Below, one piece after another: positions 760 through 55,984 of a stretch of DNA of 64,000 nt. The DNA comes from Ilumatobacteraceae bacterium (GTDB lineage: Bacteria > Actinomycetota > Acidimicrobiia > Acidimicrobiales > Ilumatobacteraceae), in contig JANPBZ010000134.1 in NCBI GenBank assembly GCA_031430695.1, forward strand, positions 8,683 to 72,682. The letters are read 5' to 3'. A model generated the notes under the pieces. It was not told where the DNA came from. It did not search any database and was given only the letters and a program-made list of their open reading frames with translations. The first letter of the stretch is position 1; the number at the start of each line of letters is the position of its first letter. The translations under genes were made by a program, and so were the position numbers.

Positions 760-3700
760 CGCTGAGCCTTTCCGTACTCACCGGCGTATCGGAGTTTGCA
801 TTCACCGGCGATCACGATCTCGGTACGCCGGCGCCCGATCGTCAGCTACGCAAACCCGCCCCGGCGACGGTGCGGATCACGATCGACGACCAGACCATCA
901 TGGTGCCCGAGGGCACCTCGGTCATGCGCGCTGCCGCACTCGCAGGCGTCGACATTCCCAAGCTGTGTGCCACCGACAGCCTCGAGCCGTTCGGTTCGTG
1001 CCGTCTGTGCCTGGTTGAGATCGATGGCCGCAAGGGCGCGCCCGCGTCGTGCACGACACCTGCGGTCAGTGGCATGCAGGTCACCACGCAATCACCCAAA
1101 CTCGAGCGCCTGCGCCGCGGCGTGATGGAGCTGTACATCAGCGATCACCCGCTCGACTGTCTCACCTGCGCGGCAAACGGTGACTGCGAGTTGCAAGACA
1201 TGGCCGGCGCGGTGGGTCTGCGCGACGTGCGGTACGGCTATGCGGGCGACAACCACCTCGGCCTCGACAAAGACACCTCGAACCCGTACTTCACCTTTGA
1301 TTCGGCGAAGTGCATCGTCTGCTCGCGCTGCGTTCGCGCCTGCGAGGAGGTACAGGGCACGTTCGCCCTCACCATCGAGGGCCGCGGTTTCGGCTCGCGC
1401 GTAGCCGCCGGCGCCAACGGGTCCTTTCTCGACTCACCGTGCGTGTCGTGCGGTGCGTGCGTGCAGGTCTGCCCAACGGCGACGCTCACCGAGAACACCG
1501 TCATCGAGCTGGGGCAACCGCGCCGCACCGTGCTCACCACCTGCGCGTACTGCGGTGTCGGTTGCTCGTTCAAGGCCGAGATGCAGGGCGAGCAAGTCGT
1601 GCGCATGGTGCCGTACAAGGACGGCGGCGCCAACGAGGGTCACTCGTGCGTGAAGGGCCGCTTCGCCTGGGGCTACGCCAGTCACCCCGATCGCATGCTC
1701 GAGCCGATGATCCGCGAGAACATCGACGATCCGTGGAAGATCGTGTCGTGGGATGAAGCCATCGCCTACACCGCGGCCAAGTTGCTCGACATCCAGGCTC
1801 GCCACGGCAACGATGCCATTGGTGGCATCACCTCGTCGCGTTGCACCAACGAGGAAGTGTTCGTGGTGCAGAAGATGGTTCGTACCGCGTTCGGCAACAA
1901 CAACGTCGACACATGTGCCCGTGTCTGTCACTCGCCCACCGGGTTCGGGCTGAAGACGGCGTTCGGCACATCGGCGGGCACACAGGACTTCAAGTCGGTC
2001 GAGCAGACCGACGTCATCTTGCTGATCGGTGCCAACCCCACCGATGCGCACCCGGTGTTCGCGTCGCGCATGAAGAAGCGGCTGCGCGACGGCGCCAAGT
2101 TGATCGTGGTCGACCCGCGTCGCATCGACCTCGTGCGCAGCGCGCACGTCGAGGCGCAGCACTTCCTGCAGCTCCGCCCCGGCACCAACGTGGCCATCGT
2201 CAACGCGCTCGCCCACGTGATCGTCACCGAAGACCTCGTCGACCATCGCTTCGTCGTCGAGCGCTGCGAGCCGGTCGACTTCTCGCACTGGGCCGAGTTC
2301 GTCTCGCTTCCGGAGAACAGCCCCGAGGAAACGGAACTGCACACGGGTGTGCCCGCCGCCGAGCTTCGTGCGGCCGCACGTCTGTATGCCACCGGCGGCA
2401 ACGGGGCGATCTACTACGGCCTGGGCGTCACCGAGCACAGCCAGGGCAGCACGATGGTCATGGGCATGGCCAACCTCGCCATGGCCACCGGCAATCTCGG
2501 CCGCGACGGCGTGGGCGTCAACCCGCTGCGCGGGCAGAACAACGTGCAGGGTTCCTGCGACATGGGTTCGTTCCCGCACGAACTGTCGGGGTATCGCCAC
2601 GTCAGCGACGACGGCACGCGGGCGATGTTCGAGACCTTGTGGGGACGTCCCATCCAGTCCGAGCCGGGCCTGCGCATCCCCAACATGTTCGATGCGGCCA
2701 TCGACGGTCACTTCAAGGGCCTGTTCGTGCAGGGTGAAGACATCGCCCAGAGCGATCCCAACACGGTGCACGTGACGACCGCGCTGCGATCGCTCGAGCT
2801 GTTGGTGGTGCAGGACCTGTTCGTCAACGAGACCGCCAAACTCGCCCATGTGTTCTTACCGGGCACGTCATTCCTGGAGAAGGACGGCACGTTCACCAAC
2901 GCCGAGCGACGTATCAACCGCGTTCGACCCGTGATGCGGTCACGTTCGGGCAAGCAGGAATGGGAAGTGGCCTGCGAGCTCTCTGCCGCGCTCGGCGCCC
3001 CCATGCACTACGACCAGTCGAGTGAGATCATGGACGAGATCGCCCAGCTCACGCCGACGTTTGCGGGCGTGTCGTTCGCGATGCTCGACGAGGTGGGCAG
3101 CGTGCAGTGGCCGTGCAACGCCGACAAGCCGCTCGGTACGCCGATCATGCACGAGGGCACGTTCGTACGCGGTCTCGGCATGTTCACGGCCACCCCGTAT
3201 GTGCCCACCGAAGAACGGTCCAACCGCCGATTTCCCCTGCTGCTGACCACCGGTCGCATCCTCAGCCAGTACAACGTCGGCGCCCAGACGCGCCGCACCG
3301 ACAACGTGCTGTGGCACCCCGAGGATGTTCTCGAAATCCACTCGCACGACGCAGAGGAGCGCGGTATCGGCGACGGTGATGAGGTCACACTGGCCAGTCG
3401 CGTCGGCGCCACCACGTTGCACGCACTGGTGTCGGACCGCATGCCACAGGGCGTGGTGTACACCACGTTCCACCACCCGGTCAGCGGCGCCAACGTGGTG
3501 ACCACCGAGTGGAGCGACTGGGCCACCAACTGCCCCGAGTACAAGGTCACCGCGGTCCAGGTCACGCCCGGTCACTCGGCCGCAACGGTGGAACTTGATC
3601 ATCCAGAGCATCGCCTCAGCGCGTTGGTGCGCATGGCCAACCAGATCGCCCGCCAGTTCTCACACGAGCCGGCTGAAGCTGCCGCCGCCGCTGTTGCGGA

Positions 3701-3824
3701 TCACCTCGACAAGTTCTGGGAACACGAGATGCGGGTAGATCTCGCCCGGGCGATCGAGGGTGGCAGTGTCACCGTCGATCCGATCGTCGTGCAAGCCGTC
3801 GAGCGGCTGGTCATCATCGTCTGA
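756..3824 (+). CDS. fdsA: Formate dehydrogenase alpha subunit (Mo-bisPGD, NAD-linked type) with a C-terminal FdsD-like extension
   Basis: N-terminal 2Fe-2S region (CATDSLEPFGSCRLC) and 4Fe-4S motifs (CIVCSRCVRAC, CVSCGACVQVCP, TTCAYCGVGCSF). Catalytic Cys-His context is DTCARVCHSPTG. The C-terminal ~75 aa (LVRMANQIARQF...VADHLDKFWEHEMR) resemble the separate FdsD subunit. Confidence 0.9.
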   Translation: MTLSLSVLTGVSEFAFTGDHDLGTPAPDRQLRKPAPATVRITIDDQTIMVPEGTSVMRAAALAGVDIPKLCATDSLEPFGSCRLCLVEIDGRKGAPASCTTPAVSGMQVTTQSPKLERLRRGVMELYISDHPLDCLTCAANGDCELQDMAGAVGLRDVRYGYAGDNHLGLDKDTSNPYFTFDSAKCIVCSRCVRACEEVQGTFALTIEGRGFGSRVAAGANGSFLDSPCVSCGACVQVCPTATLTENTVIELGQPRRTVLTTCAYCGVGCSFKAEMQGEQVVRMVPYKDGGANEGHSCVKGRFAWGYASHPDRMLEPMIRENIDDPWKIVSWDEAIAYTAAKLLDIQARHGNDAIGGITSSRCTNEEVFVVQKMVRTAFGNNNVDTCARVCHSPTGFGLKTAFGTSAGTQDFKSVEQTDVILLIGANPTDAHPVFASRMKKRLRDGAKLIVVDPRRIDLVRSAHVEAQHFLQLRPGTNVAIVNALAHVIVTEDLVDHRFVVERCEPVDFSHWAEFVSLPENSPEETELHTGVPAAELRAAARLYATGGNGAIYYGLGVTEHSQGSTMVMGMANLAMATGNLGRDGVGVNPLRGQNNVQGSCDMGSFPHELSGYRHVSDDGTRAMFETLWGRPIQSEPGLRIPNMFDAAIDGHFKGLFVQGEDIAQSDPNTVHVTTALRSLELLVVQDLFVNETAKLAHVFLPGTSFLEKDGTFTNAERRINRVRPVMRSRSGKQEWEVACELSAALGAPMHYDQSSEIMDEIAQLTPTFAGVSFAMLDEVGSVQWPCNADKPLGTPIMHEGTFVRGLGMFTATPYVPTEERSNRRFPLLLTTGRILSQYNVGAQTRRTDNVLWHPEDVLEIHSHDAEERGIGDGDEVTLASRVGATTLHALVSDRMPQGVVYTTFHHPVSGANVVTTEWSDWATNCPEYKVTAVQVTPGHSAATVELDHPEHRLSALVRMANQIARQFSHEPAEAAAAAVADHLDKFWEHEMRVDLARAIEGGSVTVDPIVVQAVERLVIIV

Positions 3825-3839
3825 CGCGCCCACGTCGCG

Positions 3840-4637
3840 TCAAGCCGGAGGAATCGGCGCCTTGCGCTGCTTCCAGTAGTAGTACATCGCCGCACCTGCT
3901 GCGGCAAGCACCAACGCGATCACAATGATTGTGTTTGCGCTGTCTCCGTCCGACTCGGCCTCGCTCGGTTGCGTGACGGTTGGCGCGAGGATGACGGCGG
4001 TGTCGGTGGGTGCGCCGGTGGTGGTGGTGCTGGCGGCGGCGGTGCTGGGTGCCGACGTCGGCGGCAGCGTGTTGGCGAGAGTGGTTGGTGCGGGGGTCGG
4101 CGCGACGGTGGTCGTGGGTGGGATTGTCGTGGTCTCGGCTGGTGGCGTGGCGGGTGCGACGCCCGCGACTTCGAGGGTAGGTGCTTCATTGTCGAGACCC
4201 GGATCGCCGATCCATCCAACCTCCTCGCCCGTGTTGTAGGTCTGCAGTATGGGGAAGGTCGCGGTTCCCAGATTTGTTCCCGAATGGAGGGTGATGTTGA
4301 AGGTCTCGTCCTCGGCGGGTGCGGCGCCTTCGTCCTTGGTGTAGCGGATGACGACCCGCTGTGACTCGCCGACAATCGTGCACGTCCACGTCGGCTTGCT
4401 CTCGCAGGCTAGGCCGGTCCACCCCTCGGGCAGTCGAATGGCGATGCGTTCGTTGTAGGTGGCCTCATCGCGCTCGTCTTCGACGAACAGCGTGAGTGCG
4501 ATGTCGCTGTCGGCAGCGACGGTGGCCGGAGCATCTTTGAAATCGGCGCGAGCATCGACGCGCGCAGGCGCCCACATGCCAATAAGACCAATGAGGATTG
4601 CGGCCGAGAACACACGCCGGCGTCGGTGAGAAGACAT
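3840..4637 (-). CDS. Secreted/membrane-anchored YcnI (DUF1775)-like protein with a Pro/Thr-rich linker and C-terminal TM anchor
   Basis: Signal peptide MSSHRRRRVFSAAILIGLIGMWAPARVDA. The core pattern (ALTLFVEDERDEATYNERIAIRLPEGW...KPTWTC...FPILQTYNTGEEVGW) is reminiscent of DUF1775. A P/T/A-rich tract follows, then IIVIALVLAAAGAAMYYYW. Confidence 0.55.
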   Translation of the reverse strand: MSSHRRRRVFSAAILIGLIGMWAPARVDARADFKDAPATVAADSDIALTLFVEDERDEATYNERIAIRLPEGWTGLACESKPTWTCTIVGESQRVVIRYTKDEGAAPAEDETFNITLHSGTNLGTATFPILQTYNTGEEVGWIGDPGLDNEAPTLEVAGVAPATPPAETTTIPPTTTVAPTPAPTTLANTLPPTSAPSTAAASTTTTGAPTDTAVILAPTVTQPSEAESDGDSANTIIVIALVLAAAGAAMYYYWKQRKAPIPPA

Positions 4638-4710
4638 ATCTCAAGTTTGTCGTCCGAGGAACGCGAAAAGTTCCCGAGAACGACAGAAATCTACCTCGCT
4701 ACCAGTCGGG

Positions 4711-4989
4711 CTAGACGGCTTCTTTCACCTTGCGTCCGACTTCGATGGCGTGGTCGGGGTAGCGATTGGGATCGCCCGGCACGCCGAGTGAAGCGCGGAA
4801 CAGCGTGATCGCCTTGAAACAGGCCGCCTCGTGCAGGCCGGCGTTCATGATTCGATTCACCGAGGGAGTCAGGTCGATCGATTCTGTGCGGATGGCCTGG
4901 GCCACACCCTCACTGGTGGTGAGGTCTTCGGCAATCGCTGCGGCTGCTTTGGCGCGCTTGGTGGCTGGACGAGGCTTCGGTGTAGGCAT
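4711..4989 (-). CDS. Hypothetical small protein (92 aa)
   Basis: Only the ATG at 4989 gives a protein-like product (MPTPKPRPATKRAK...). The longer 245-aa ORF upstream is Arg/Pro-rich GC-artefact-like sequence. No family recognised. Confidence 0.4.
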   Translation of the reverse strand: MPTPKPRPATKRAKAAAAIAEDLTTSEGVAQAIRTESIDLTPSVNRIMNAGLHEAACFKAITLFRASLGVPGDPNRYPDHAIEVGRKVKEAV

Positions 4990-30543: not shown

Positions 30544-31716
30544 GTGATGATCACCTCTGATGGGCGGCGACTGATCGCCACCCGCGCTCTGCGCGGCTAC
30601 GCCGATGGACTGGTTGCGGTATCGCTGGCGGGGTATCTCGGCGATCAGTTGGGATATAGCGCCACTCGCATTGGCGTGATCGTGACGGGCATGCTGCTGG
30701 GCTCAGCGGTGCTGACGATGTTCACCGGCACATGGGGATGGCGGTTCGAACGTCGACTGCTACTGCGAATCGGTGGACTGCTGATGATCGTCACGGGCGT
30801 GGTCTTCGCCACGTCGACGACGTTCGTCGTCTTGTTGGTCCTGGGTGTCGTCGGCACGATGAATCCGAGCGGCAGTGATGTCAACGTCGTGCAGCCGATC
30901 GAGCAATCGCTGCTCCCGCTGACCACGACCGAGGAACACCGCTCGCACGTGTTCGCCCGCTACACGTTCTTCGGTGGATCGCTGGCGGCGCTCGGGGCAC
31001 TGTCTGCGGGGCTACCCGCTCGGTTTCATTGGCAAGCCGATTCGGTGTTCATCGTCTACGCCGTGGCCGGCGTCGCGATGCTCGGCGTCTATGCATCGAT
31101 GTCGCCGTTGGTCGAGGCGGCCGCTCAGGCGACGACCCCGACGCCGCTCGGCCCATCGAAGCGCGTCGTCTATCGGCTGGCCGCGTTGTTCAGCATCGAC
31201 GCCTTCGGGGGCGGGTTTGCCGTGCAGTCGCTGTTGGTGCTGTGGCTGCTGCGTCGCCATCACTTCTCGGTCGGCAAAGCGGGCGCGGTACTCGCCGTCA
31301 TGCAAATTCTGGCTGCCGCTTCGGGCTTTGCGGCCGTGCGAATCGAACGTCGTCTCGGGCCTCTGCGGACGATGGCGTTCACTCATCTTCCCGGGCAGAT
31401 CTTGCTGATTGCCGCCGCGCTCATGCCCAACGCCCCGCTGGCCGTGGCCTGTTTGATCGGCCGGAGTCTGCTGTCGAGCATGGACGTACCGGTGCGCAAT
31501 GCGTACGTGATGTCGGTCGTGACTCCGGCCGAGCGGGCGGCGGCGGCCAGCGTGACCAACGTGCCGCGTAGCCTGGCCGCCGCGCTGCCCCCGATTGCCG
31601 CGGGTTGGATGCTCGATCGCTCGACGTTCGGCTGGCCCCTGATCGTCGCCGGTTCGCTGAAGATCATCTACGACGTGTTGCTGTTGCGGATGGCCAGAGA
31701 CTCGCCTGACCGCTAG
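30544..31716 (+). CDS. MFS transporter
   Basis: About 12 hydrophobic segments and MFS-like loop motifs. GTG 30544 or ATG 30547. Confidence 0.8.
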   Translation: MMITSDGRRLIATRALRGYADGLVAVSLAGYLGDQLGYSATRIGVIVTGMLLGSAVLTMFTGTWGWRFERRLLLRIGGLLMIVTGVVFATSTTFVVLLVLGVVGTMNPSGSDVNVVQPIEQSLLPLTTTEEHRSHVFARYTFFGGSLAALGALSAGLPARFHWQADSVFIVYAVAGVAMLGVYASMSPLVEAAAQATTPTPLGPSKRVVYRLAALFSIDAFGGGFAVQSLLVLWLLRRHHFSVGKAGAVLAVMQILAAASGFAAVRIERRLGPLRTMAFTHLPGQILLIAAALMPNAPLAVACLIGRSLLSSMDVPVRNAYVMSVVTPAERAAAASVTNVPRSLAAALPPIAAGWMLDRSTFGWPLIVAGSLKIIYDVLLLRMARDSPDR

Positions 31717-32160
31717 CGATTGCTGATTGCTGCGGCCAGCGGACCCGCCTGGTACCGCCGCCAGGTGATGGATTGCATGGCAGCGAGAATGACAGCGACT
31801 CCACCGACCGCCGCTGAGTCCGGCAGCGACGCGCCGACGAGCAACCACGCCGCGGCGACGACAACTGCCACGAAGCGTTCGGGGGCAAGCCGATGCACGA
31901 CCCGCCATTGGATGTGGAGGCAACGATTCGGTCGGGTCGGCGACCATGTGCTTGGCCACGACCGCGTAGGCGATGATCCCCGTGACGATCGGGAAATGTC
32001 CGAACGTGAACAGGTCGCGGGCTGCTCGCCTGCGATGCGCGTCGCCGGCACGCTCGAGCGTGTGCTCGGCGACACGGGGAATGGATGCGAAGTACACCCA
32101 CCAGACCACGCACGCCACCGATGTGGCAGCCGCCAGCCCTACCGGTGAGCGCGAAGCCAG
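31713..32160 (-). pseudogene. C-terminal remnant of an LtrA (low-temperature-requirement A)-like membrane protein, frameshifted
   Basis: One frame reads ...LAAATSVACVVWWVYFASIPRVAEHTLERAGDAHRRRAARDLFTFGHFPIVTGIIAYAVVAKHMVADPTESLP down to about 31920. Protein-like sequence then continues in another frame (LHIQWRVVHRLAPERFVAVVVAAAWLLVGASLP...AAISNR, stop 31713). The N-terminal two-thirds expected for the family are absent. Confidence 0.4.
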
Positions 32161-32660
32161 ATCAGCAACGCAGCCGCCCACAGTTGCTCGTACGGCACGT
32201 CGCGCCCGAGCTCGTCGGCGAGGTCCAGCCGCAGCTCGCCGAGTGCGAGATCCAGATCCGCAGGGATCGTCGCCTGTACCAGACGCGGACCCGTCGTTGC
32301 TTGCTCGGCCAGCCGACGAACGTCGGCGAGGCGTCTGCTGATGTCGCCGCGTTGAGCGAGCAGGAGTTCGAGGGCCTCGGTGGCGACGTCGTCCCATGTG
32401 ACACGACGGCCCCGGCGAGCCTGTTGCAGGAGCTTGAGCCGACGAGCGTCGGCGTGCAACGCGTGGGGCACGAGGTGACCGCGAAGTCGACCACTGGACG
32501 TACCGCGACCGAGCGGCTCGACACGATGCTGGGATGGGTGCGTCAGCGATGCGCTACGCGGAGCGATTGGCGTCGCATCGATCTCAGCCGCACCGCGAGC
32601 GGGAGCCTTCTGCATGCGATCTGCGAACCGCTGTGCCAACTCGTGGCGCTTGGAAGTCAT
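32139..32660 (-). CDS. 173-aa arginine-rich partner protein of the ParA-like ATPase, hypothetical
   Basis: ATG 32660 lies 2 nt downstream of the parA-like stop (32663-65). Basic N-terminus MTSKRHELAQRFADRMQK, Arg-rich middle and helical C-terminal half. No ParB HTH or ParB-N motif recognised. Confidence 0.55.
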   Translation of the reverse strand: MTSKRHELAQRFADRMQKAPARGAAEIDATPIAPRSASLTHPSQHRVEPLGRGTSSGRLRGHLVPHALHADARRLKLLQQARRGRRVTWDDVATEALELLLAQRGDISRRLADVRRLAEQATTGPRLVQATIPADLDLALGELRLDLADELGRDVPYEQLWAAALLIWLRAHR

Positions 32661-32662
32661 CA

Positions 32663-33508
32663 CTAGACCAACTCGGGAATAGGAAAGCGCCAACCTCGCC
32701 GTTGGATCAGTTCGTAGGCGACGTGTCGATAGGCGGTGGCTGAACGCGCGCTGTAGTGATACGCGCCGACGGGCAAGCCGACGAGGTGGGCTTCGCCGAA
32801 CTTGGCATCTTCTGGAATCTTGTTGCGAAACAACGGAACTTCATATCGGTCGGCGATGGCGCGGATCTGTTCCTCGGCGACGCGCCGGTAGACGCTGGTG
32901 CCCCAGATGCGCATCTTGATGATGCCGTACACCTCGGGGCGGCCGTCGGAATCAGCCGACGTACGAATGGTGTTCAGGATCGTCGGCAACTCGGTAACAG
33001 GTCCGGCCTCTGGCACCATCGGCACGACCACCCCCGATGAACCGCTGAGTGCCGCGGCGACGACACCCGACTGATGGCCGGGAGTATCGACGAGCACGAC
33101 GTCCCACTCGAGGCGAGCGCTGTCGAGGATGTCGATCAACCGGCTGCGCACCCATGGGTCGGTGAGCTGTCGTCCCGCGTGCGCCATCGACACTTCGTCA
33201 GCGGGAAGGACGTCGAGGTTGGGGTGCACCTGACGAACCAACGCCTCCTCGAGCATGGCATGGCCGAGGAGAACGGCGCCGACGTCGGCGACATCGCGCA
33301 CCGAGCGCCGCGGAGCAGCCTCCCCGATGAACACCGACTGGCCGGTCTGCTGATCGAGATCGATGACGAGGACTTTCGCGCCGCACGTCGACAGGGCGTA
33401 GGCGAGGTTGAAGGTGAGCGACGTTTTGCCTGCGCCACCTTTGGTGTGGGCAACCGTGATGACCTCGCCCAATGGCGCGAACGGGGTCGGGGGTGGCAGA
33501 TCGCTCAT
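32663..33508 (-). CDS. ParA/Soj-family (deviant Walker A) ATPase
   Basis: KGGAGKTS Walker A, VIDLDQQ, LVDTPG. Divergent from the giant surface-protein gene. Confidence 0.85.
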   Translation of the reverse strand: MSDLPPPTPFAPLGEVITVAHTKGGAGKTSLTFNLAYALSTCGAKVLVIDLDQQTGQSVFIGEAAPRRSVRDVADVGAVLLGHAMLEEALVRQVHPNLDVLPADEVSMAHAGRQLTDPWVRSRLIDILDSARLEWDVVLVDTPGHQSGVVAAALSGSSGVVVPMVPEAGPVTELPTILNTIRTSADSDGRPEVYGIIKMRIWGTSVYRRVAEEQIRAIADRYEVPLFRNKIPEDAKFGEAHLVGLPVGAYHYSARSATAYRHVAYELIQRRGWRFPIPELV

Positions 33509-33576
33509 CCGACCACCAGTGTCACAGATTGCACCAACAAACCCATGAGCAGGATCTTAGCTCACGATTTCAAATA

Positions 33577-33588
33577 TGCATATATGCA
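33577..33588. promoter_or_regulatory. Perfect 12-bp palindrome TGCATATATGCA in the low-GC divergent control region
   Basis: Seen directly. It sits 69 nt upstream of the parA-like ATG and about 215 nt upstream of the giant-gene ATG. An operator or centromere-like role is only inferred. Confidence 0.3.
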
Positions 33589-33802
33589 AATACTTCTCGC
33601 AGGGTTGAAATTGTCAAGGTCTCGGCAAGAATGCCGATGAAATCCCTGGTGAGAATGAAGATTCACGTCAGAGGGCTGGGCTCGAGACGTGTGGTTCGGT
33701 GGACGAACGCACAACTCGATCGCTGCACGGGTGCCGGCGCCAACTCGGCGCGCCCCCATTCGGACTCACTATATTCCTGTCGGCGGCCGGGCCTGTTCAC
33801 AC

Positions 33803-36800
33803 ATGGCTGACGACAGACCCTCCTCAAACAACGCCTCCCGCTGGTCGGGTCTGCGACGAAGCGCTCTCGCGACCGCGCTCGTCAGTGGATCTGTTGTGTT
33901 CGGCACCGGCCTGTTCGTTCCCTCGGTCGCTGCGGCTCCACTCTGCGCTTCACCGCCACTGACGGGCAACACGACTGCCACCGGTGTGATCAACACCTAC
34001 TACCCCGGTCAGACCTCGATCACAGCTGGCACGTCGAACACGACGGTGACGGTCGGAACGAGTCGCGGCTCGGCGACTCCGATCGCGGTTGGCGATCTTG
34101 TGATGGTGATGCAGATGCAGGGCGCAGAGATCAACGCGACCAACACCAACGCGTACGGCGACGGTGTCACGTCCGCGACGGCGTCAGGGTTCTTGAACAA
34201 TGCCTCGTTCATCGCCGGGCAGTACGAGTATGCGACCGTGCGCTCGGTGGCCGGAGCAGTGGTCGGGCTCGATGGTTCGGGTACGAACGGCGGACTCATC
34301 AACAACTACGTCAACGCCAGCGAGTCGGCGACTCAGGGTCAGCAGCGGTTCCAGGTCGTGCGCGTGCCGCAGTACTCGTCGGCCACATTGAGCGTGGCGA
34401 CGCCGCCTGCTGCCGTGGCGTGGGACGGCTCGAGCGGCGGCATCGTCGTGCTCGATGTCGCCAGCGATCTCAACCTCAACGGCGCGACGATCAACGTCAC
34501 CGGCCAAGGCTTCCGTGGCGGTCTGCAGCGGAGTCGAAGCGGCACCGGCGGGTTGGCCAACACCGACTACCGAACGACCACCGCGCAAGCAGCGAATGGT
34601 CAAAAGGCGGAAGGCATCGCCGGAACCACGAAGTGGACCACCGGTTCGGCCGACACCGTCGGCGACGGATATCCGAACGGCGACTTCGGCCGCGGCGCAC
34701 CCGGCAATGCCGGCGGTGGTGGGACCGACGGCGACCCGGCTTCCAACAGCGAGAACTCCGGCGGCGGTGGCGGAGGCAACGGCGGTGCCGGCGGCGTCGG
34801 AGGCAACACCTGGTCGTCGAACCTCGCACGCGGCGGGCATGGCGGTGCTGTGGTGCCCGGGACCGCGAGCCGAGTGTTCCTCGGCGGTGGCGGTGGCGCC
34901 GGCAGCGACAACAACGCAGTCCTTTCGTCAAGTGGTGGCGCAGGCGGAGGCATGGTGCTGGTGCGCGCCGGCAGCCTGTCGGGCACGGGCACGATCAACG
35001 CCGACGGCGCAGCCGGAAACGTGAGCGGTCAAGACGGCAGCGGTGGCGGCGGGGCAGGCGGCTCGATCGTCGTGCTCACTTCCTTGACCGGAGCGGCAAG
35101 CGGTATCAGCGGCCTGACGGCTCGTGCCCGAGGTGGTGCCGGCGGCAACGAGACCCACGCCGATCAACATGGCCCGGGTGGCGGCGGTGGCGGCGGGCGA
35201 GTGATCACTGCGGCTGCTACCGCATCGACCGTTGTCACAGCTGGAGCCAACGGCACCCACGTCCCGACGAGCAGTGCCTACGGTGCAACGAGCGGTAGCG
35301 CTGGTGCGTCGTCGGCGACTGCGGTCGTCGGCGATGCCCCAGGCACCAACACCGGCTCGCAATGCATCGATGCAAGTGTCACCAAATCGACCAACCCCAC
35401 CCCCGTGATCCCTGGCCAGACAGTGACCTATACCGTGGTGGCCACCAACGACGGCCCGTACCCTCGAACGGGCACGGCGCCAATCGTGGTGACCGACACG
35501 TTGCCCGCCGGGCTCACCTCGGCGACATGGACGTGCAGCGCCTCGGCCGGATCCAACTGCACCGCCAGCGGCAGCGGATCGTTGAGTACGACCGCCAACC
35601 TCGAGGTCGGTGACTCGGCGACATACACGATCACCGCGACCCTGGCGTCGACATTCACGGGGACCCTCTCCAACACCGCCACCGTCGCCGGGCCGGCGAC
35701 GATTCCTGAGCTCAACGCCACGAACAACTCGGCGACATCGGCCGTCCTGGCCGAACCACGCGCCAACCTTGGCATCACCAAGACGGACGGAGTCGCTGCT
35801 GAGGTACCCGGCACCAATGCCGTCTACACGATCGTGGCGTCGAACGCCGGTCCCTCCACGGCAACCAACGCACTGATCACCGATTCACTGCCGGCGGGCA
35901 CGATCTCGGGTTCGTGGACGTGCGCAGCCGGCAGCGGGGGCACATGCGGTGCGGCAAGCGGCACGATGCCGATGTCGACGACTGCGACCCTCTCGCCGAG
36001 CGGCACGGTGACGTATACCGTCACCGTCGCTGTGTCGTCGACCGCCACCGGTTCGCTGGCCAACACGGTCACGATCGCCGCCCCGGCCGGAACCGTCGAG
36101 ACCAACTCGGCCAACAACGTCGCGACCGACACCGACAACTTGACGCCGACGGCCGACCTGTCGATCTCGAAGACCGACGGTCTCACCACCATTGATGCCG
36201 GCACCGGCCTCACCTACACCATCGCCCTCTCGAATGCCGGCCCATCGGCGATCACCGGAGCGACGGTCACCGATACCTTCCCTGCCAGCCTGACCGGCGC
36301 AACGTGGACGTGTGCCGCGTCGGCTGGGTCGAGTTGCCCGGCATCGGGCTCCGGCAGCATCTCCGCATCCGTGAATGTTCTTGCTGCCGGCTCGGTGACG
36401 TTCACGGTGACCGCCACGGTGGTCTCCACTGCGACCGGCACGTTGTCGAACACGGCGACCGTTGCATTGCCCGGTGGGGCGACTGACCCGACCGCGGCCA
36501 ACAACACAGCCACCGACACCACGACCATCACCCGCCGAGCCGATGTCTCGATCACCAAGACCGACGGGGCCGCCACGGAGGTGCCGGGAACGTCGGTGAC
36601 CTACACGATCGTGGCGGCGAACGCCGGACCGTCTGCGGCGATCGGCACGAGCGTCACCGATACGTTGCCGGCCAGCCTCACGGGCGCGACCTGGACCTGC
36701 ACAGCCACCGCTGGGTCGACCTGCCCGGCATCGGGCAGCGGCAACATCAGCACCACGGTCGACCTACTGCCCAGTGGTAGCGCAACGTTCACCCTGACCG

Positions 36801-54800: not shown

Positions 54801-55984
54801 TCGCAACCGCCCTGCCCGGAGACGCCTTCTCGTACACGATCGTGGTCAGCAATGCCGGCCCAGCGCTGCTCGACGATGTCTCGATCTCCGACCCTGTGCC
54901 GGCCGGTCTCGTTGCGCTCTCGTGGACATGCCTGGGCAGCGCCGGTGGTGTCTGCAACTCGGTCATCGGCAGCGGTTCGCCAGCACTCACTGCCGACCTG
55001 CCATTGGGTGGCTCGGTCACGATCACGTTCAACGTGCAGGTAGCACCGGGTGCCACAGGCTCGATCCTCAACATCGTCACCGCGACGGCCGGCGGGGCCA
55101 GTGGCCAGGTCACCGCGCAGGCAACCGCCAGCGTGGAAGTGAGCCCGGTCGTGCCACCGACCGCGGCACTCTCGATCACCAAGGCGACATCGGTGGCGAC
55201 GTATTCGACGGTCGGCAGCGTCGTCAGCTTCACCCTTGTCGCGAGGAACACCGGCAGTGCCACATTGACCAACGTGACAATCGCCGATCCCAACGCCACG
55301 CTGACGGCGTGCGCGCCGGTCACGCTCGGCCCGGGTCAGACACTGACCTGCTCGGCGGGCCACGTCGTGACGCAGTCCGATCTCGACCGGGGCACGTTGA
55401 GCAACACGGCATCTGTGTCGGGCGTCTCGCCGACCGGCTCCACCGTTGTCGCCACCAGCGCGACCGTGGTGGTACCCGCGCTGCCGATCACGGCTCTGTC
55501 GATCGTCAAGTCGTCGTCGGCGACCGAGTTCGTCAAGATCGGCGACAAGATCTCATACACGATCACAGCCACGAACACGGGCAACGTAACCCTGATCAAC
55601 GTTGTCATGTCCGATCCCAATGCTTCGCTGATCTCCTGCGCCCCGACCAACTTGACGCCGGGGCAAGCCCTGACGTGTACGGCTGTTCACACGGTGACAG
55701 CCGCTGATGTGGCGGCCAAGGTGATCCTCAACCAGGCGTTCGCAACGGCATTGCCGGTGACCGATTTCGAAGTGGTCTGCCCGCTCCTGGGGGCCAGCGG
55801 CCTGCAGTGCCCCAACGGTCCGACGGTCTCGGCCGAGTCCAACACCGTGGTGTTGAACCGGGCTTCGCTACTGCCCAGTACTGGTGGAACGGTTGTCACC
55901 AAGCTGATCGTCGGTGGGTGGCTCTTCGGTGTCGGCGGCCTGCTGCTGCTGGTGACCGGCCGTCGCCGCCGCGCAGCGCGCTGA
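33803..55984 (+). CDS. Giant (about 7,390 aa) LPXTG-anchored cell-surface protein made of DUF11-type repeat modules
   Basis: A single open frame runs 33689-55984. ATG 33803 precedes a signal-peptide-like N-terminus (RWSGLRRSALATALVSGSVVFGTGLFVPSVAAAP). About 51 modules of about 129 aa follow. The C-terminus is LPSTG plus a hydrophobic segment plus RRRRAAR. Confidence 0.9.
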   Translation: MADDRPSSNNASRWSGLRRSALATALVSGSVVFGTGLFVPSVAAAPLCASPPLTGNTTATGVINTYYPGQTSITAGTSNTTVTVGTSRGSATPIAVGDLVMVMQMQGAEINATNTNAYGDGVTSATASGFLNNASFIAGQYEYATVRSVAGAVVGLDGSGTNGGLINNYVNASESATQGQQRFQVVRVPQYSSATLSVATPPAAVAWDGSSGGIVVLDVASDLNLNGATINVTGQGFRGGLQRSRSGTGGLANTDYRTTTAQAANGQKAEGIAGTTKWTTGSADTVGDGYPNGDFGRGAPGNAGGGGTDGDPASNSENSGGGGGGNGGAGGVGGNTWSSNLARGGHGGAVVPGTASRVFLGGGGGAGSDNNAVLSSSGGAGGGMVLVRAGSLSGTGTINADGAAGNVSGQDGSGGGGAGGSIVVLTSLTGAASGISGLTARARGGAGGNETHADQHGPGGGGGGGRVITAAATASTVVTAGANGTHVPTSSAYGATSGSAGASSATAVVGDAPGTNTGSQCIDASVTKSTNPTPVIPGQTVTYTVVATNDGPYPRTGTAPIVVTDTLPAGLTSATWTCSASAGSNCTASGSGSLSTTANLEVGDSATYTITATLASTFTGTLSNTATVAGPATIPELNATNNSATSAVLAEPRANLGITKTDGVAAEVPGTNAVYTIVASNAGPSTATNALITDSLPAGTISGSWTCAAGSGGTCGAASGTMPMSTTATLSPSGTVTYTVTVAVSSTATGSLANTVTIAAPAGTVETNSANNVATDTDNLTPTADLSISKTDGLTTIDAGTGLTYTIALSNAGPSAITGATVTDTFPASLTGATWTCAASAGSSCPASGSGSISASVNVLAAGSVTFTVTATVVSTATGTLSNTATVALPGGATDPTAANNTATDTTTITRRADVSITKTDGAATEVPGTSVTYTIVAANAGPSAAIGTSVTDTLPASLTGATWTCTATAGSTCPASGSGNISTTVDLLPSGSATFTLTATIASTATGSLANTATVAVAAGVTDPAAGNNSATDTDTLTPTADLSITKTDGVTGEVPGTAVTYTIVASNAGPSTATAATATDTLPAVLSGGTWTCSASVGSTCPASGSGNINASVTLAPGGTATFTLTATISSSATGSLANTATIAAPASVTDPTPGNNSATDVDTLTPTGDLSITKTDGVATAIPGQSVTYTIVATNAGPSVITAATVADTFPASIAGATWTCSASAGSSCPASGSGNINANVNLAVAGTATFTVTAPISPTATGSLVNTATIAAPAGSSDPSGANNSATDTDTLTPTADLSITKTDGAATEVPGTPVTYTIVASNAGPSAASGSNVADTFPAALTGATWTCSAGGGATCPASGSGNISATVDLPVGGTASFTVNGTVAAGATGSLTNTATVSVGAGITDPAPGNNAATDTDTLTPTADLLITKTDGATTEVPGTSVTYTIVASNAGPSTITAATVTDTMPASLSGVTWTCSASAGSSCPASGSGSISASVTLVSGGAATFTVTGAISATATGSLANTATVALPGGATDPTPANNSATDTDTLTPTADLSITKTDGSATEVPGTAVTYTIVASNAGPSAVTAATVADTMPAALTGVTWTCSASSGAACPASGSGDINASVDLPVGGSATFTVSATISASATGNLVNTATVAAPGGVTDPTPANNSATDADSLIPTADLSITKTDGVVTEVPGTAVAYTIVATNGGPSAVSAATIADTMPAALTGVTWTCAGASGGTCPASGSGNINVSVDLPVGASVTFTVSATISTSATGTLVNTATIAPPAGVTDPTPANNSATDTDTLNPTADLSITKTDGSATEVPGTAVTYTIVAGNSGPSAVIAATVADTIPATLNGATWTCVPAGGGSCAASSGSGNISTTVDLPVGATATFTISATVVATTTGNLVNTASITAPGGVTDPTPANNSATDTDTLNPTADLSISKTDGVASVIPGQSTTYTVVVGNAGPSTAVNAPVADALPAGATSGSWTCAASVGASCGAASGSMPIATTVTIAAGATATYNVVVAVSSTATGSLTNTSTVQAPAGVTDPVSADNSATDIDSLTPTADVSISKTDGLTTVVPGANVTYTVVASNPGPSTVTGATVSDTIPAALSGATWTCSASGGSTCPATGSGDLAASVTLAPGGSTTFTISATVVASATGTISNTATITLPGTVTDPTPANNSATDLTTVTPQTDLTITKTDGTPTAVPGQSTTYTIVVTNTGPSSVTGAAVTDTMPAGVTTMNWSCAGSGGGSCPAAGSGSISDNVDLPVGASVTYTVTVAVAAGATGTLTNTATVAAPLGVTDTNAANNTATDVDTLTPRADLAVTKTDGVASVIPGQSTTYTVTVTNAGPSDAPNTVVTDATPVDASFTSWSCSPSAGAACSTASGSGSINTSVDLPLGTIVTFVVDAAIDAAATGTLGNTATAAPAPGITDPVVGNNSATDTDTLTPTADLAITKTNLLSTVVPGDPISYTVTASNSGPSSVVGASVVDALPASLTAATWTCAASGGGSCTSSGSGSINETVNLPVGATVIYTVDGVVASAAIGSIDNTATVGVPVGVTDPVVGNNSATDSDPLTPEVDLSITKTDGLAIADPLDAVTYTIVVSNDGPSSVSDAQVVDLIPAALLGATWTCASGVGGNCDLAGPVAGDINTTVDLAVNGSVQFTVTATIAGSTIGTVINTATVSAPSGVSETNSADNAATDATAVTSTAALSITKTDGQATDVAGTSSTYTITVANSGPSAVINAAVADALPPALTNATWTCTASGAGNCDDAGPTAGDINSTVDLPSGESATFTVTATVDPSFTGLLSNTATVTAPPGTIDDPSNNSSTDDTTVVAEANLTVAKSDGTVTATPGADTTYTVTVDNAGPSAVVGATVGDVLPAGATAMNWTCAASVGSSCTASGSGSLGDTVDLLPGGQVTYVVIVDIDAAATGLLTNTATATVPPTMTETSPLDNTATDIDSLVAETDLAITKTDNTLAAVPGTAITYTIVATNNGPSDAIGATVADTFPGELNSISWTCVGPCTPAGSGALNDVVGLPVGATVTYTVTATIAASAVGVLSNTATVTAAPGTVDPNPVNDSATDVDTLAAVADLSITKTDGAANEVPGTPVSYTIVVSNNGPSDVVGASVVDTFPLDLANATWSCVAAGGTCPVAGSGDINAVVILAVGGAATFAVTADVAASATGTLTNTATVTAPPATDPNAGNNSATDVDTLSPEVDLSVTKTDNDLVAQPGDSVTYEIVVSNAGPSAVIGAPFTDIVPSSLVGVSWTCAASSGASCPAAGSGNAINTTLSLTPGGTATFTVTATVDAPATGVIANTATIAAPVGVVETASGDNTATDTTSVTPTADLIITKTDGLTSIAAGQAITYTIVVTNAGPSTITDALVTDVLPSALVGATWTCAASAGSSCLDAAGSGDISDLVTLASTGTATFTVSATVAASTPAGTLSNTADVAMPVGSVDPTPANNTATDTTTIERHADLEVTKTDGVSSATPGLAIQYTIVVTNNGPSNVSAATVVDTMPATLIGATWTCSASVGSTCPASGSGDFASLVDLLAGGTATFTVDATVAASALGTLVNTAGATVPSGVTDPVPGNNSSTDTDTLDPVADLSITKDDFSATATPGAPVTYTVVVSNAGPSDVIGATVADVLPATLSGVTWSCSVSGSGSCPASGSGDVNSLVSLTVGATATFTITGTLSAAATANLVNTATVTAPVGVTDPAPADNSATDVDTLARVADLSVTKTDFAATATPGTAVSYQIVATNNGPSDITGAVVTDTPPAELTGVTWSCTATGGASCSNSSGVGAINELADLPVGASVTFTLTATLSPAATVPVANTVQIAVPAGATDPNPSNNTATDTDAIVPVADLSITKTVDLAAALPDDVLTYTIVVANAGPSDISDSLVDDVVPADVVGATWTCAAQAGGNCDLTGPVSGDIAGTVDLVVGGSVSFTVTGTVASTATGTIINSATVAAPAGANDPNPANNTSSASTTINPKADLSITKTDGNVTDVAGTSLQYSIVVTNSGPSTIQDAPVDDVLPAALLAVSWTCSPSAFSVCDDPAGGGDITTTVDLLAGGTATFVIDASIDPAFAGVLTNTASVTMPGVGVDPTPANNSATDLTTIVAEADLSITKTDGSLAATPGGSTVYTVTVSNSGPSTVVGAPVSDAIPAGATAMNWTCLASPGSSCAPSGSGALADTVSLLPGGAATYQATVDISSAATGAFVNTASVAAPIGVTDPAPANNSATDIDTLSPSADLSITKTDGLSNAVPGTSLTYTVVATNAGPSDAVGATINDSLPASLVGSTWTCVGTGGGTCAGAGVGNIADTVNLPTGASVTYSVTAMIDSNATGTLVNTASIAAPIGTTDPDPSDNSATDTDTLTPQSDLFVTKTDGQTNVVPGTPVTYTVVAGNAGPSAVAGATVTDLLSADLLGASWTCAAAGGRCPATGTGNIAANIDLAVGGTATFTISATVSPSATSTLANTVDVAVPSGVTDPMAGNNTATDTDTLNPEADLSISKTDGRISAQPGDAITYTLVAANAGPSAVVGAPVIDALPAGLSAASWTCAPSAGASCPASGSGNINTTVSLPVGATAIFTVTTSITATSGVVANTVQIDAPAGVSDPSTGDNVATDTTSITPTADLSITKTDGLTTVAAGEVVTYSIVATNAGPSPIIGATVADAIPGVLVGASWTCSATVGSTCANATGSGSINELADLAAGGQVTFSITGTVNGSAAPGLLSNTATITMPFGSIDPTPGNNSATDTTVIERRADLSISKDDFTGAAVAGGSTTYTVVVSNNGPSNVFGAAVSDPIPTGVTAMTWTCSATAGASCIVAGTGALATNVNLAAGSSVTFTVVVDIDAAASGLLTNIASVIPPSGVTDPNSANDSDTDVDTVAGVADLTITKDDGSSTATPGSTTTYTMVVTNNGPSNVTGATVTDLQPVGTTFDSWACTATGAASCSDPSGTGSISTTVDLAVGASVTFTVVMAIDSSVTADVTNTATVAAPSGVTDPNSGDNAASDTDTMLLVADLSITKTDGSATVTPGTTVVYSVTASNAGPSDIAGAAVTDLVPAALTGATWTCAGTSGGACTTATGSAPINQSVDLPVGGSVTFTITGVVDPALVGDLVNTATVAAPVGVIDPNPGNNSATDLDTNTPVTDLAVSKTDGLTSALPGDVVTYTVTVSSAGPSDAVGASLIDAVPAVLTGVTWTCAAVNGGCVASGTGSLNESIDVAVGGTVTFSITGTVVGTATGTITNTATVMAPAGANDPNPGDNSATDATTVNPKADLSITKTDGNLSDVAGTTVTYTIEVANAGPSMITGAPVADVMPPALSGATWSCTATAGSVCGGVGGAGDIAATVDLLAGGVATFTVTATIDAAFTGTLTNTATVAMPGPGVDPTPGNNIAVDTTDVVAVADLSVTKTDGVVSEVPGTAVSYTIVVSNAGPSDVVGASVSDVMPVSLSNVLWSCVGVAGGVCSPSGTGDVVDVIDVASGGSVTYSVSGDLAADASGVLVNAVSVVAPGSVTDPDLSNNSASDVDTLVPTADLSVTKTDGVVSEVPGTAVSYTIVVSNAGPSDVVGASVTDVFPATLIGASWTCVAVNGACPASGSGSISELVDLATGGTATFTVTATLSSSATGSITNTATVTPPAGATDPDPTNNSDADTDTLDAVADLSITKTDNDTNARPGDLITYEIVASNAGPSAITGAVVSDAMPAGVFGVSWTCAAGSGATCPASGIGDLNETVDLAVGASATFTVTATVTASVGSITNTAQIDAPAGATDPNTADNVASDTTQVDPLGDLSITKTDGLTSAAPGAGISYSIVVSNSGPSAAAGVAISDTVPPSLSGVTWSCTASPGSACTNATGTGDISELVDLAAGGSVSFMVAATIDADATGVLSNTATVAPPSGFADSDSANNSATDVTDLDPAVDLAATKTDGQVIAIPGTPISYIIVVTNAGPSVAAGSQVLDSLPASLLGATWTCSAAPGSSCGAPSGSGSIDEIVTVGVGGTLTYIVAASVSPSAVGVLANTVTVMPALGTGDTNAGNNSATDVDSLSPQANVNVVKTDGAAAAVPGTTITYSIIVSNAGPSAVSNAAVADVLPAELINATWTCTGSIGGSCDAVSGIGGIVTTADLQAGSAVTYTLTATVVPVATGTVVNTATVSVPVGVVDSDLTDNSSTDIDNLTPSVDLSIAKTDGVTSVVPGTSTTYTIMVANSGPSTAAGAQITDLLPAELINASWGCTASGGATCGTPSGSGDVSLLATLPAGGSLTIDVDADIDPTATGFVVNTATVTGPVGVTDTDPANDSATDSDVLTPTADLSITKDDGLATALPGDPVAYAIVVTNNGPSAVVGATVTDVMPAGLSAVTWTCSALPSSSCASAAGGGDIATTVDLAIGESATFVIDATIAISQIGVVTNTATVDAPVGVTDPNSADNIAIDTTMVNGLGDVSIVKSDGVATIVAGTSTTYTIVVTNPGPSQIDRIQVIDSLPAALIGASWTCAATGAASCSAASGFGSISEMIDMPAASTVTFSVTATVSPSASGTLSNTASVTLPTGIVDSDLTNNDSTDVTDIDRIADLAVTKTNHVSALTPGNSVGYDITVVNNGPSSVSGATLSDLVPASITGVTWTCTAGAGAACGAGAGSGNVSLNLDLAVGASVAVRITGTVSPNAAGTLTNSATVAPPVGVTDPDVADNTATDTDTLDPVADVSVAKSNGVTSQSPGATSSYTITVANAGPSAAAGVTIDDPLPSGVATASWTCSAAAGSSCAAASGIGAVNTTVDLAAAGTVTLTVSLQAGLFAGTLTNTVTATVAAGTTDPDPSNNVASDTDTLVFTADIAVTKAVSAAVVAVGQALNYTVVVSNAGPDRAAGVTVLDTMPAGLASLTWTCAATPGSSCPANGTGDITSSIDLAAGGSATFTVSATVTSAAPNTIVNTATAAVGPDTIDPDPTNNTASVTFAVDFTSSLSVQKTATVATALPGDAFSYTIVVSNAGPALLDDVSISDPVPAGLVALSWTCLGSAGGVCNSVIGSGSPALTADLPLGGSVTITFNVQVAPGATGSILNIVTATAGGASGQVTAQATASVEVSPVVPPTAALSITKATSVATYSTVGSVVSFTLVARNTGSATLTNVTIADPNATLTACAPVTLGPGQTLTCSAGHVVTQSDLDRGTLSNTASVSGVSPTGSTVVATSATVVVPALPITALSIVKSSSATEFVKIGDKISYTITATNTGNVTLINVVMSDPNASLISCAPTNLTPGQALTCTAVHTVTAADVAAKVILNQAFATALPVTDFEVVCPLLGASGLQCPNGPTVSAESNTVVLNRASLLPSTGGTVVTKLIVGGWLFGVGGLLLLVTGRRRRAAR
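35360..55150 (+). repeat. Coding tandem-repeat array, unit about 387 nt (129 aa), about 51 copies by hand count
   Basis: Recurrent ADLSITKTDG..EVPGT.VTYTIVASNAGPS...W(T/S)C...C...TNTATV..P.G.TDP...NNSATD.D.L.P. The anchor tcgatc(a/t)c(c/g)aagaccga recurs at 36161, 36548, 36935, 37322, 37709, 38096 (with ctgatc in place of tcgatc), 38483, 38870 and 39257. Confidence 0.9.
55871..55984 (+). other. Sortase cell-wall sorting signal (LPSTG, hydrophobic span, basic tail)
   Basis: LPSTGGTVVTKLIVGGWLFGVGGLLLLVTGRRRRAAR followed by the stop. Confidence 0.85.

Follow-up and report, generated by a model that had tools for sequence, protein, structure and literature searches.

What does a ParA-type ATPase do beside the gene of a single, extremely long surface protein? 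The known cargoes of ParA ATPases are plasmids, chromosomes and a few protein bodies, and the locus considered here lies in a stretch of 64 kb (the window, taken at its full length) that forms part of contig C134 of a metagenome-assembled genome (MAG) of 4.15 Mb and 270 contigs, whose close relatives are labelled Ilumatobacteraceae, class Acidimicrobiia. On the minus strand of the window, a ParA/MinD-family gene of 281 amino acids (aa) is followed 2 nucleotides (nt) later by the gene of a basic protein of 173 aa, called the partner in the following, and upstream of parA a giant surface-protein gene is read in the opposite direction. The pair is probably a module on the chromosome that has the build of a type Ib plasmid partition locus, with a ParA, a ribbon-helix-helix (RHH) partner that binds a site, and an iterated site upstream. 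With comparable, moderate confidence, the module is taken to be conserved in the company of giant sortase-anchored DUF11/SpaA surface-protein genes in Acidimicrobiia, and not to be the decaying remnant of a plasmid.

The ParA gene and the predicted fold of its partner

The features of the pair are the following.

32663 to 33508, minus strand: parA-like gene, 281 aa, with the deviant Walker A motif and its signature lysine (TKGGAGKTS) and the DLD and DTPGH motifs (from motifs, Pfam and PDB alignment).
32139 to 32660, minus strand: partner gene, 173 aa, starting 2 nt after the parA stop (from the open reading frame and the homologue alignment).
32610 to 32654, minus strand: partner residues 3-17, conserved basic N-terminal helix SKRxxLAxRFADRL (from the alignment and AlphaFold2).
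32502 to 32606, minus strand: partner residues 19-53, predicted disordered linker of variable length (predicted local distance difference test, pLDDT, below 50).
32355 to 32492, minus strand: partner residues 57-102, predicted first RHH unit, with a strand at 57-64 and helices at 66-83 and 89-102 (AlphaFold2, pLDDT above 94).
32145 to 32285, minus strand: partner residues 126-172, predicted second RHH unit, linked to the first by a helix at 104-120 (AlphaFold2, internal repeat).

The identity of the partner is not apparent from its sequence. Searches in Pfam, NCBIfam and PDB profiles gave no usable match, and a Pfam search of all 24 members of the partner alignment, at E-values up to 10, returned nothing usable either. 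The family is small, with 57 clusters at 50% identity among 1.84 billion representative proteins, all of which are named "hypothetical". Its members share the N-terminal basic helix SKRDDLAKRFADRL, a low-complexity linker and a conserved C-terminal domain of about 120 aa. Six residues of the helix (K4, L8, A9, R11, R15 and L16) are nearly invariant in the homologue alignment, and the length of the linker ranges from about 20 to 350 aa, the longest linkers, of about 350 aa, being found in distant relatives that still keep the helix. We infer that this N-terminal helix (N-helix) is a peptide that contacts ParA and stimulates its ATPase.

AlphaFold2 models of the full-length partner contain the helix at residues 3-17, disorder at 19-53 and a tandem RHH domain with a pLDDT above 94; the C-terminal domain modelled alone reaches a pLDDT of 93.4 and a predicted template modelling score of 0.86. 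The second unit is composed, in the model, of a strand at 126-133 and helices at 134-151 and 157-172, and the two halves of the domain align in register (hhalign E 1.8e-4, 45 columns). In both Foldseek searches against the PDB, the best matches were three TraY chains of the F-plasmid relaxosome, with probabilities of 0.8-0.95 and template modelling (TM) scores of 0.5-0.62. VirC2, the fold of which is reportedly formed by a single chain, was matched weakly (E 2.9, probability 0.06). The pattern of the model, the internal repeat and the top fold matches all point to a single-chain tandem RHH of the TraY type, by resemblance of fold and not by sequence homology, and the C-terminal domain is accordingly predicted to be a pseudo-dimer of two RHH units fused in one chain. 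The original prediction had described the partner as lacking any recognisable ParB helix-turn-helix (HTH) or ParB-N motif. This holds for the sequence, and Pfam found no ParB_N or HTH_ParB domain; it does not hold in its implication at the level of the fold, where a DNA-binding domain is predicted. No membrane segment or cargo-binding domain was detected in the partner by Pfam and AlphaFold2, and the predicted fold led to the rejection of McdB-like and ParB-like identities.

The ATPase is more conventional. Its Walker A motif reads HTKGGAGKTS in context, and the Pfam matches AAA_31 (4.5e-26) and CbiA (1.6e-14) span residues 15-247, with no other domain. It falls below every NCBIfam equivalog cut-off, the best being ParA_partition with 77 bits against the 180 required, and it aligns over its full length with Soj, an archaeal MinD and a mycobacterial ParA-like protein in the PDB (E about 1e-15). 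McdA is a weak match (E 1.5e-4), and the equivalog of VirC1 (NF010423) scores 16.4 bits against a cut-off of 313. The Pfam match to MipZ covers only positions 2-129 of the 262 in the profile, and the alignment to MipZ in the PDB is restricted to residues 15-57 of ParA; membership of the MipZ group is ruled out by this partial profile match and by the presence of a dedicated partner gene. The classification relative to McdA, MipZ and PpfA is one by hidden Markov model and PDB scores.

The layout on the chromosome agrees with what had been proposed for it. The ATPase with the motif KGGAGKTS and the basic partner behind it are confirmed by the reading-frame coordinates and by Pfam (parA stop codon TAG at 32663-32665, partner ATG at 32660, end of the partner gene at 32139), and the spacer between parA and the divergent giant gene (ATG at 33803) does measure 294 bp, from 33509 to 33802. 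One flank holds clpB (TIGR03346, 1254 bits) and a gene for a transporter of the major facilitator superfamily (MFS), and the other holds a histidinol-dehydrogenase-like (hisD-like) gene, purA and purB. No replication, relaxase, integrase or transfer genes and neither dnaA nor gidB were found in these flanks, so that the pair does lie among housekeeping genes and away from any replication locus. The own partition locus of the chromosome is a canonical jag(R3H/KH)-rsmG-parA-parB cluster on contig C138 (C138:16490-17618), and its ParA is only 28% identical to that of the window. Because the canonical cluster sits there, the pair in the window is an additional, non-canonical ParA module, an orphan as had been supposed. 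In its full-length alignment with Soj, the window ParA resembles that of the Soj/ParA-Spo0J/ParB-parS systems; membership of the chromosomal ParABS group is ruled out by the missing ParB domains of the partner and by the rsmG/jag-linked locus on C138.

TGCA boxes in the control region and the type Ib comparison

The spacer shared by the pair and the giant gene contains three elements.

33569 to 33588, no strand: TGCA-box array TTCA-aata-TGCA-tata-TGCA, containing the palindrome TGCATATATGCA; two exact boxes and one degenerate box with an 8-bp period.
33539 to 33559, minus strand: -10-like TAAGAT (33554-33559) and the leader CCTGCTCATGGGTTT (33539-33553), in the stretch that separates the boxes from parA; conserved in same-genus upstream alignments.
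33612 to 33636, no strand: TTGACA at 33612-33617, pointing towards parA, and the palindrome CGGCA-N4-TGCCG at 33623-33636, kept in genomes with the giant gene and partly in one without it (G015).

The boxes surfaced from a cross-species alignment of the DNA upstream of parA; generic repeat finding had missed them, as they are short. They are TGCA tetramers with 4-bp AT-rich spacers and a period of 8 bp, present in two to four copies directly upstream of parA, and the typical array within the genus has three of them (TGCA-TATA-TGCA-TAT(A/G)-TGCA). Two boxes or a shifted variant occur in G188, L044 and L066, four boxes in L069 (Acidimicrobiaceae) and three in each of L068 and L085. In the outlying lineages that carry boxes, the partner is only 37-46% identical, and the boxes are therefore conserved across considerable divergence. 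No array was seen in the most distant loci that bear a partner (G040/L035, L045-L047 and L087), and boxes are absent from all three loci in which the partner is missing. The palindrome TGCATATATGCA is unique in the 4.15-Mb genome, even with one mismatch permitted. A search of the genome for a dispersed centromere, that is for more palindromes or box arrays, found none, and three-box arrays elsewhere numbered none against 0.25 expected per genome. The sole other AT-spaced pair of the genome, TGCA-ATAA-TGCA at C70:3090-3370, sits between a divergent XRE-like HTH gene and an excisionase-like gene of 71 aa; it probably belongs to the switch region of a mobile element and looks unrelated to the ParA module.

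As for the other elements of the spacer, the position of TAAGAT between the boxes and parA suggests a role as promoter. The TTGACA and the CGGCA-N4-TGCCG palindrome may be the site of a second regulator or a portion of the promoter region of the giant gene, towards which a weak sigma-70-like site at 33605-33632 is oriented. The boxes lie about 215 bp from the ATG of the giant gene.

Taken together with the predicted fold, the boxes recall the ParF-ParG-parH/OF system of plasmid TP228, in which the RHH protein ParG binds ACTC tetramer boxes with regular 4-bp AT-rich spacers, in a site (OF/parH) that acts as both operator and centromere (PMC3130281). Both systems have a small ParA without an HTH and, going by the model of the partner, a downstream protein with a flexible N-terminal tail and an RHH fold, and both have an upstream site of tetramer boxes with 4-bp AT-rich spacers. 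The features by which type Ib loci are recognised, a small ParA of about 200-300 aa without an N-terminal HTH and a downstream RHH partner with a flexible N-terminal tail, are found here in the 281-aa ParA itself and, for the partner, in the AlphaFold2 prediction only. Unlike in TP228, where ParG is a homodimer, one chain holds both predicted RHH units; the boxes read TGCA and number two to four, whereas TP228 has eight plus twelve of ACTC; the locus lies on the chromosome, in linkage with a giant surface-protein gene; and the partner has no sequence similarity to ParG.

An actinobacterial precedent is ParB of plasmid pCXC100 from Leifsonia xyli, a type Ib RHH protein in which no motif is detectable by sequence and which binds tandem direct repeats (PMC3074162). 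As in the partner, its RHH is invisible to sequence searches, and its N-terminal half is protease-sensitive (PMC3074162); unlike the partner, it is a dimer of single RHH chains, acts on nine repeats of 9 nt and is encoded on a plasmid. The PDB profile search run with the partner alignment did not return it. By fold, the one close match is TraY of the F relaxosome, an RHH dimer in a single polypeptide (PMC12117103), which forms a train when it binds to direct and inverted subsites. At oriT, TraY acts together with a relaxase and not with a ParA; it is 9-12% identical to the partner, with the TM scores given above and weak E-values, and has neither the N-terminal helix nor the long linker. The VirC1-VirC2 pair of the Agrobacterium Ti plasmid likewise combines a ParA/MinD-like ATPase with an RHH-fold protein and has been taken over for a task other than partition (PMC8406263), whereas no type IV secretion system or relaxase genes are present at the window locus and the score of its ParA lies far below the cut-off of the VirC1 equivalog. 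The module thus differs from type Ib par loci in its fused double RHH, its very short box array, its fixation on the chromosome and its linkage to a giant adhesin.

Linkage to the giant gene and its losses in the genus

The third member of the locus is the following.

33803 to 55984, plus strand: giant surface-protein gene of 7,393 codons, with a signal-peptide-like N-terminus, a glycine-rich head and DUF11/DUF7507 repeats (from domain searches).

The C-terminus of the giant protein (55502-55984, plus strand) carries LPSTGG, then a hydrophobic segment, then RRRRAAR. Such an ending is a classical cell-wall sorting signal for sortase, and the protein is therefore taken to be a fibre anchored covalently to the wall.

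The locus was compared among relatives, most of which are fragmentary MAGs; related genomes and loci share kinship, and all counts given here characterise the sample and do not amount to formal tests. The genus keeps the order clpB-MFS-partner-parA. At 13 same-genus loci, the trio is complete, with parA on one side of the giant gene and the hisD-like gene on the other. Six same-genus loci have the pair without the giant gene, and there the hisD-like gene ends 40-110 nt from the boxes (one of the six was assigned from the hisD-like 3' end in the sequence upstream of parA). At three further loci (G008, G013 and contig C300 of G005), parA stands alone, with neither partner nor boxes. The divergent trio also recurs outside the genus, in at least four other lineages, with differing flanks and differing heads of the giant protein, and the conservation in relatives, which the original prediction had put forward as a check, is thereby borne out. 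G188/L067, L066 and L044 have trios with orthologous giants and, as flanks, HAD-GH18 or S8 peptidase genes; the trio of L069 has a different giant head and an aquaporin gene downstream, and that of L085 has a glycine-rich giant head. In L045, the gene of a large SdrD/SpaA-repeat protein lies 3' of the partner on the same strand. The linkage of the pair to giant genes is recurrent but not obligatory.

The distribution of the module in the class is patchy. It was found in 19 of the 26 genomes of the genus and matched once among 300 other genomes sampled from the class, a search of uncertain sensitivity in which the first-look filter scored few candidates. A scan of metagenomes yielded only short contigs of 1-3 kb.

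Within the genus, the supported sister pairs are the same in the parA tree and in the MFS-gene tree, and both trees place the genomes without the giant gene beside genomes with the trio. By parsimony, the parA tree implies that the giant gene was lost five times, and the ParA-only loci form a single clade. The deletions of the giant gene retain differing amounts of the old spacer and are for this reason taken as separate events; in three giant-less genomes that were checked, the head of the giant protein was not found elsewhere. The giant-less pairs and the ParA-only loci are secondary losses and not the ancestral state. The original prediction had named the occurrence of the pair in relatives without the giant gene, flanked by plasmid genes, or ICE genes, as a point that would speak against a link. 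Such pairs do exist in the six same-genus genomes, with ParA alone in three others, yet they lack plasmid or integrative and conjugative element (ICE) flanks and are secondary.

The losses extend to the partner in a graded way. The N-helix is intact in all 12 trio loci that could be read, two of which show frameshifts that may be assembly errors. It is deleted in three giant-less genomes (L051, L062 and L064) and degraded at invariant positions (K4N, L8P and F12S) in a fourth (G007/L052); it is lost or degraded, then, in four of the six giant-less genomes, in four separate events on the tree, all of them within giant-less lineages. The RHH domain, on the other hand, has a ratio of nonsynonymous to synonymous substitution (dN/dS) of 0.08-0.19 with or without the giant gene. 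This pattern suggests that the N-helix, and by inference the contact between ParA and its partner, matters mainly when the giant gene is present, and that the RHH domain and the boxes serve autoregulation with or without it. ParA is under purifying selection in all of these states, including the ParA-only clade: its dN/dS is 0.06-0.18 in all comparisons across the genus and 0.056-0.098 for pairs inside the ParA-only clade, and its catalytic motifs are all intact. The stepwise series from trio to pair, to pair without N-helix and to ParA alone offers a natural experiment by which the functions of the parts could be told apart.

Some observations at individual loci may be added. In two MAGs of the MFD set (L063 and L065), parA and the partner are split by frameshifts across which the protein sequence is conserved, and these breaks may be assembly errors rather than signs of pseudogenes. 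MAG G005 holds both a trio-type locus (C389) and a ParA-only locus (C300) with the same clpB-MFS flank (L074, L077), which suggests two strains or species binned together; its reported contamination is 4%. At L044:1919-4396 (minus strand), four small genes called on the plus strand as hypothetical, between parA and a fragment of 650 aa, overlap the N-terminal codons of the giant gene, about 830 of them. The downstream part of that giant is 86% identical to the giant of G188, and the small genes are artefacts of gene calling around a frameshift. At L087:2-3028 (plus strand), in a remote branch of the partner family, lies the gene of an EccC- or TraB-like ATPase that belongs to the FtsK/SpoIIIE family and is at least 1008 aa long, and the L087 and G040 loci have DUF2889 and HpcH neighbours in common.

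A further gene of the neighbourhood is present in the window as a remnant only.

31716 to 32181, minus strand: frameshifted remnant of an LtrA gene, residues 225-400 only (from comparison with the LtrA of relatives).

In many genomes of the genus, an intact gene for the LtrA membrane protein (PF06772, E about 1e-70) lies 3' of the partner, and its start overlaps the partner stop, giving a parA-RHH-ltrA operon with LtrA as third gene. Examples are L048:5994-7193, L054:10506-11693, L062:10405-11616 and L064:10418-11593. The loss of LtrA has been repeated within the genus.

What the module may do

If the pair is a type Ib-like module, the beta-ribbon of the RHH pseudo-dimer would most likely read the TGCA boxes, with one chain per box or box pair, as in the trains formed by TraY and ParG. 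Binding at the parA promoter would autorepress parA and the partner, and it would probably also influence the promoter of the divergent giant gene. The N-helix, held on its flexible linker, would contact the nucleoid-bound ParA-ATP dimer and trigger hydrolysis, as the tails of ParG and ParB do, and the cargo would be a DNA site, namely the giant-gene locus, rather than a protein body. The outcome could be regulation, positioning of the locus, or both.

Several findings weigh against this reading. The E-values of the Foldseek matches to TraY are weak (0.1-0.5), and no RHH family was matched by the partner sequence in the Pfam and PDB profile searches. The window genome has only two exact boxes, and two-box pairs occur at chance level genome-wide, with 64 seen against 63 expected, so that the case for the boxes rests on their conservation and position. 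A single short array is also small for a centromere, as parH has 12-20 boxes. The association between loss of the giant gene and loss of the N-helix is not significant (two to three of three independent pairs, sign test p = 0.25). In G040, the pair occurs without a giant gene, and in L087 it (3101-4848) directly follows the FtsK/SpoIIIE ATPase gene and not a giant gene. Finally, since purifying selection on ParA persists in the clade that lacks partner, boxes and giant gene, the data suggest a further, partner-independent role of ParA that the model leaves unexplained.

The alternative that survives best is a pure transcription switch, in which expression of a costly giant gene is governed by the RHH protein, ParA-ATP being its co-repressor or anti-repressor, and nothing is positioned or segregated. 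The boxes do lie between divergent genes and abut promoter-like elements, the RHH domain and boxes outlast the loss of the giant gene as an autoregulator should, and a single short array suits an operator better than a centromere; ParG and the omega protein, moreover, repress as well as bind centromeres (PMC3130281). Such a switch would leave unexplained the strong selection on a full ParA with all catalytic motifs, even where it has no partner, and it sits uneasily with the distance of the boxes from the giant ATG, with the weakly predicted promoter of the giant gene and with the pattern of N-helix loss, which suggests that the contact of ParA and partner matters specifically when the giant gene is present. 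As the whole explanation, it is possible, if rather doubtful.

More specific than the type Ib-like module as such, and an unlikely though conceivable extension of it, is the idea that the pair is a dedicated system for handling the loci of giant secreted-protein genes, a partition-type machine that serves one gene and not a replicon. The box-bound partner and the nucleoid ParA would then position, or free, a locus that is otherwise tethered to the membrane during the coupled transcription, translation and secretion of a protein of 7,400 residues; alternatively, the contact between partner and ParA might couple expression of the giant gene to cellular location.

The original prediction had offered, as one speculative reading, a positioning or segregation module tied to the giant protein or its secretion site, with McdAB and ParC/PpfA as precedents; in such a reading, a nucleoid ParA would place a secretion or sortase site, or another assembly, through the partner. 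With McdA-McdB, ParC-ParP and PpfA, the pair has in common that an orphan ParA-type ATPase is accompanied, away from oriC, by a small, basic and partly disordered protein. The recurrent linkage to giant secreted, LPXTG-anchored proteins would suit this, as would the long disordered linker, which many adaptors have, and the conservation of ParA without its partner, which leaves room for another cargo. A preprint on PldP reportedly states in its title and abstract that this protein influences TatA dynamics. A ParA-like protein coupled to secretion also has a precedent in VirC1/VirC2 (PMC8406263). Unlike the adaptors of those systems, however, the partner has as its sole folded domain a predicted DNA-binding RHH, with a putative cognate DNA site that is conserved alongside it, and it has no membrane segment or cargo-binding domain. 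The ATPase bears the signature lysine and matches Soj/MinD-type proteins best and McdA weakly, and carboxysome and chemotaxis genes are absent from the neighbourhood. Membership of the McdAB group is ruled out by the predicted RHH, the neighbours (clpB, MFS, giant and hisD-like genes) and the weak McdA match. The predicted RHH and the conserved iterated upstream site give the layout of a ParG-type system, an outcome that the original prediction had itself named as refuting, and the proposed adaptor of a non-DNA cargo did not stand up; positioning of a protein cargo is improbable.

The original prediction had named a left-over partition cassette as its alternative. That the pair is the functionless relic of an integrated plasmid or ICE which delivered the adhesin gene would fit a type Ib-like architecture typical of plasmids, the patchy distribution in the class, the differing genomic contexts of the trio by lineage and the piecemeal loss of giant gene, LtrA, N-helix and partner, but it is highly improbable in view of flanks (clpB, MFS, hisD-like, purA, purB) free of mobility genes, a position conserved across the genus at a synonymous divergence (dS) of up to about 1, a dN/dS of 0.06-0.19 for both genes in all states and boxes conserved to the base.

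For the Acidimicrobiia, the type Ib-like reading means that a plasmid-type ParA/RHH module, fixed on the chromosome and with an unusual, predicted fused double-RHH partner, travels with giant adhesin genes in several lineages of the class. The partner family, with about 57 clusters at 50% identity and no annotation, gains a testable fold, DNA site and role. If the link to the giant gene is functional, the module would show how bacteria regulate or physically handle the genes of extremely long secreted proteins, and it would add to the ParA adaptors a class that has one chromosomal gene locus as its cargo.

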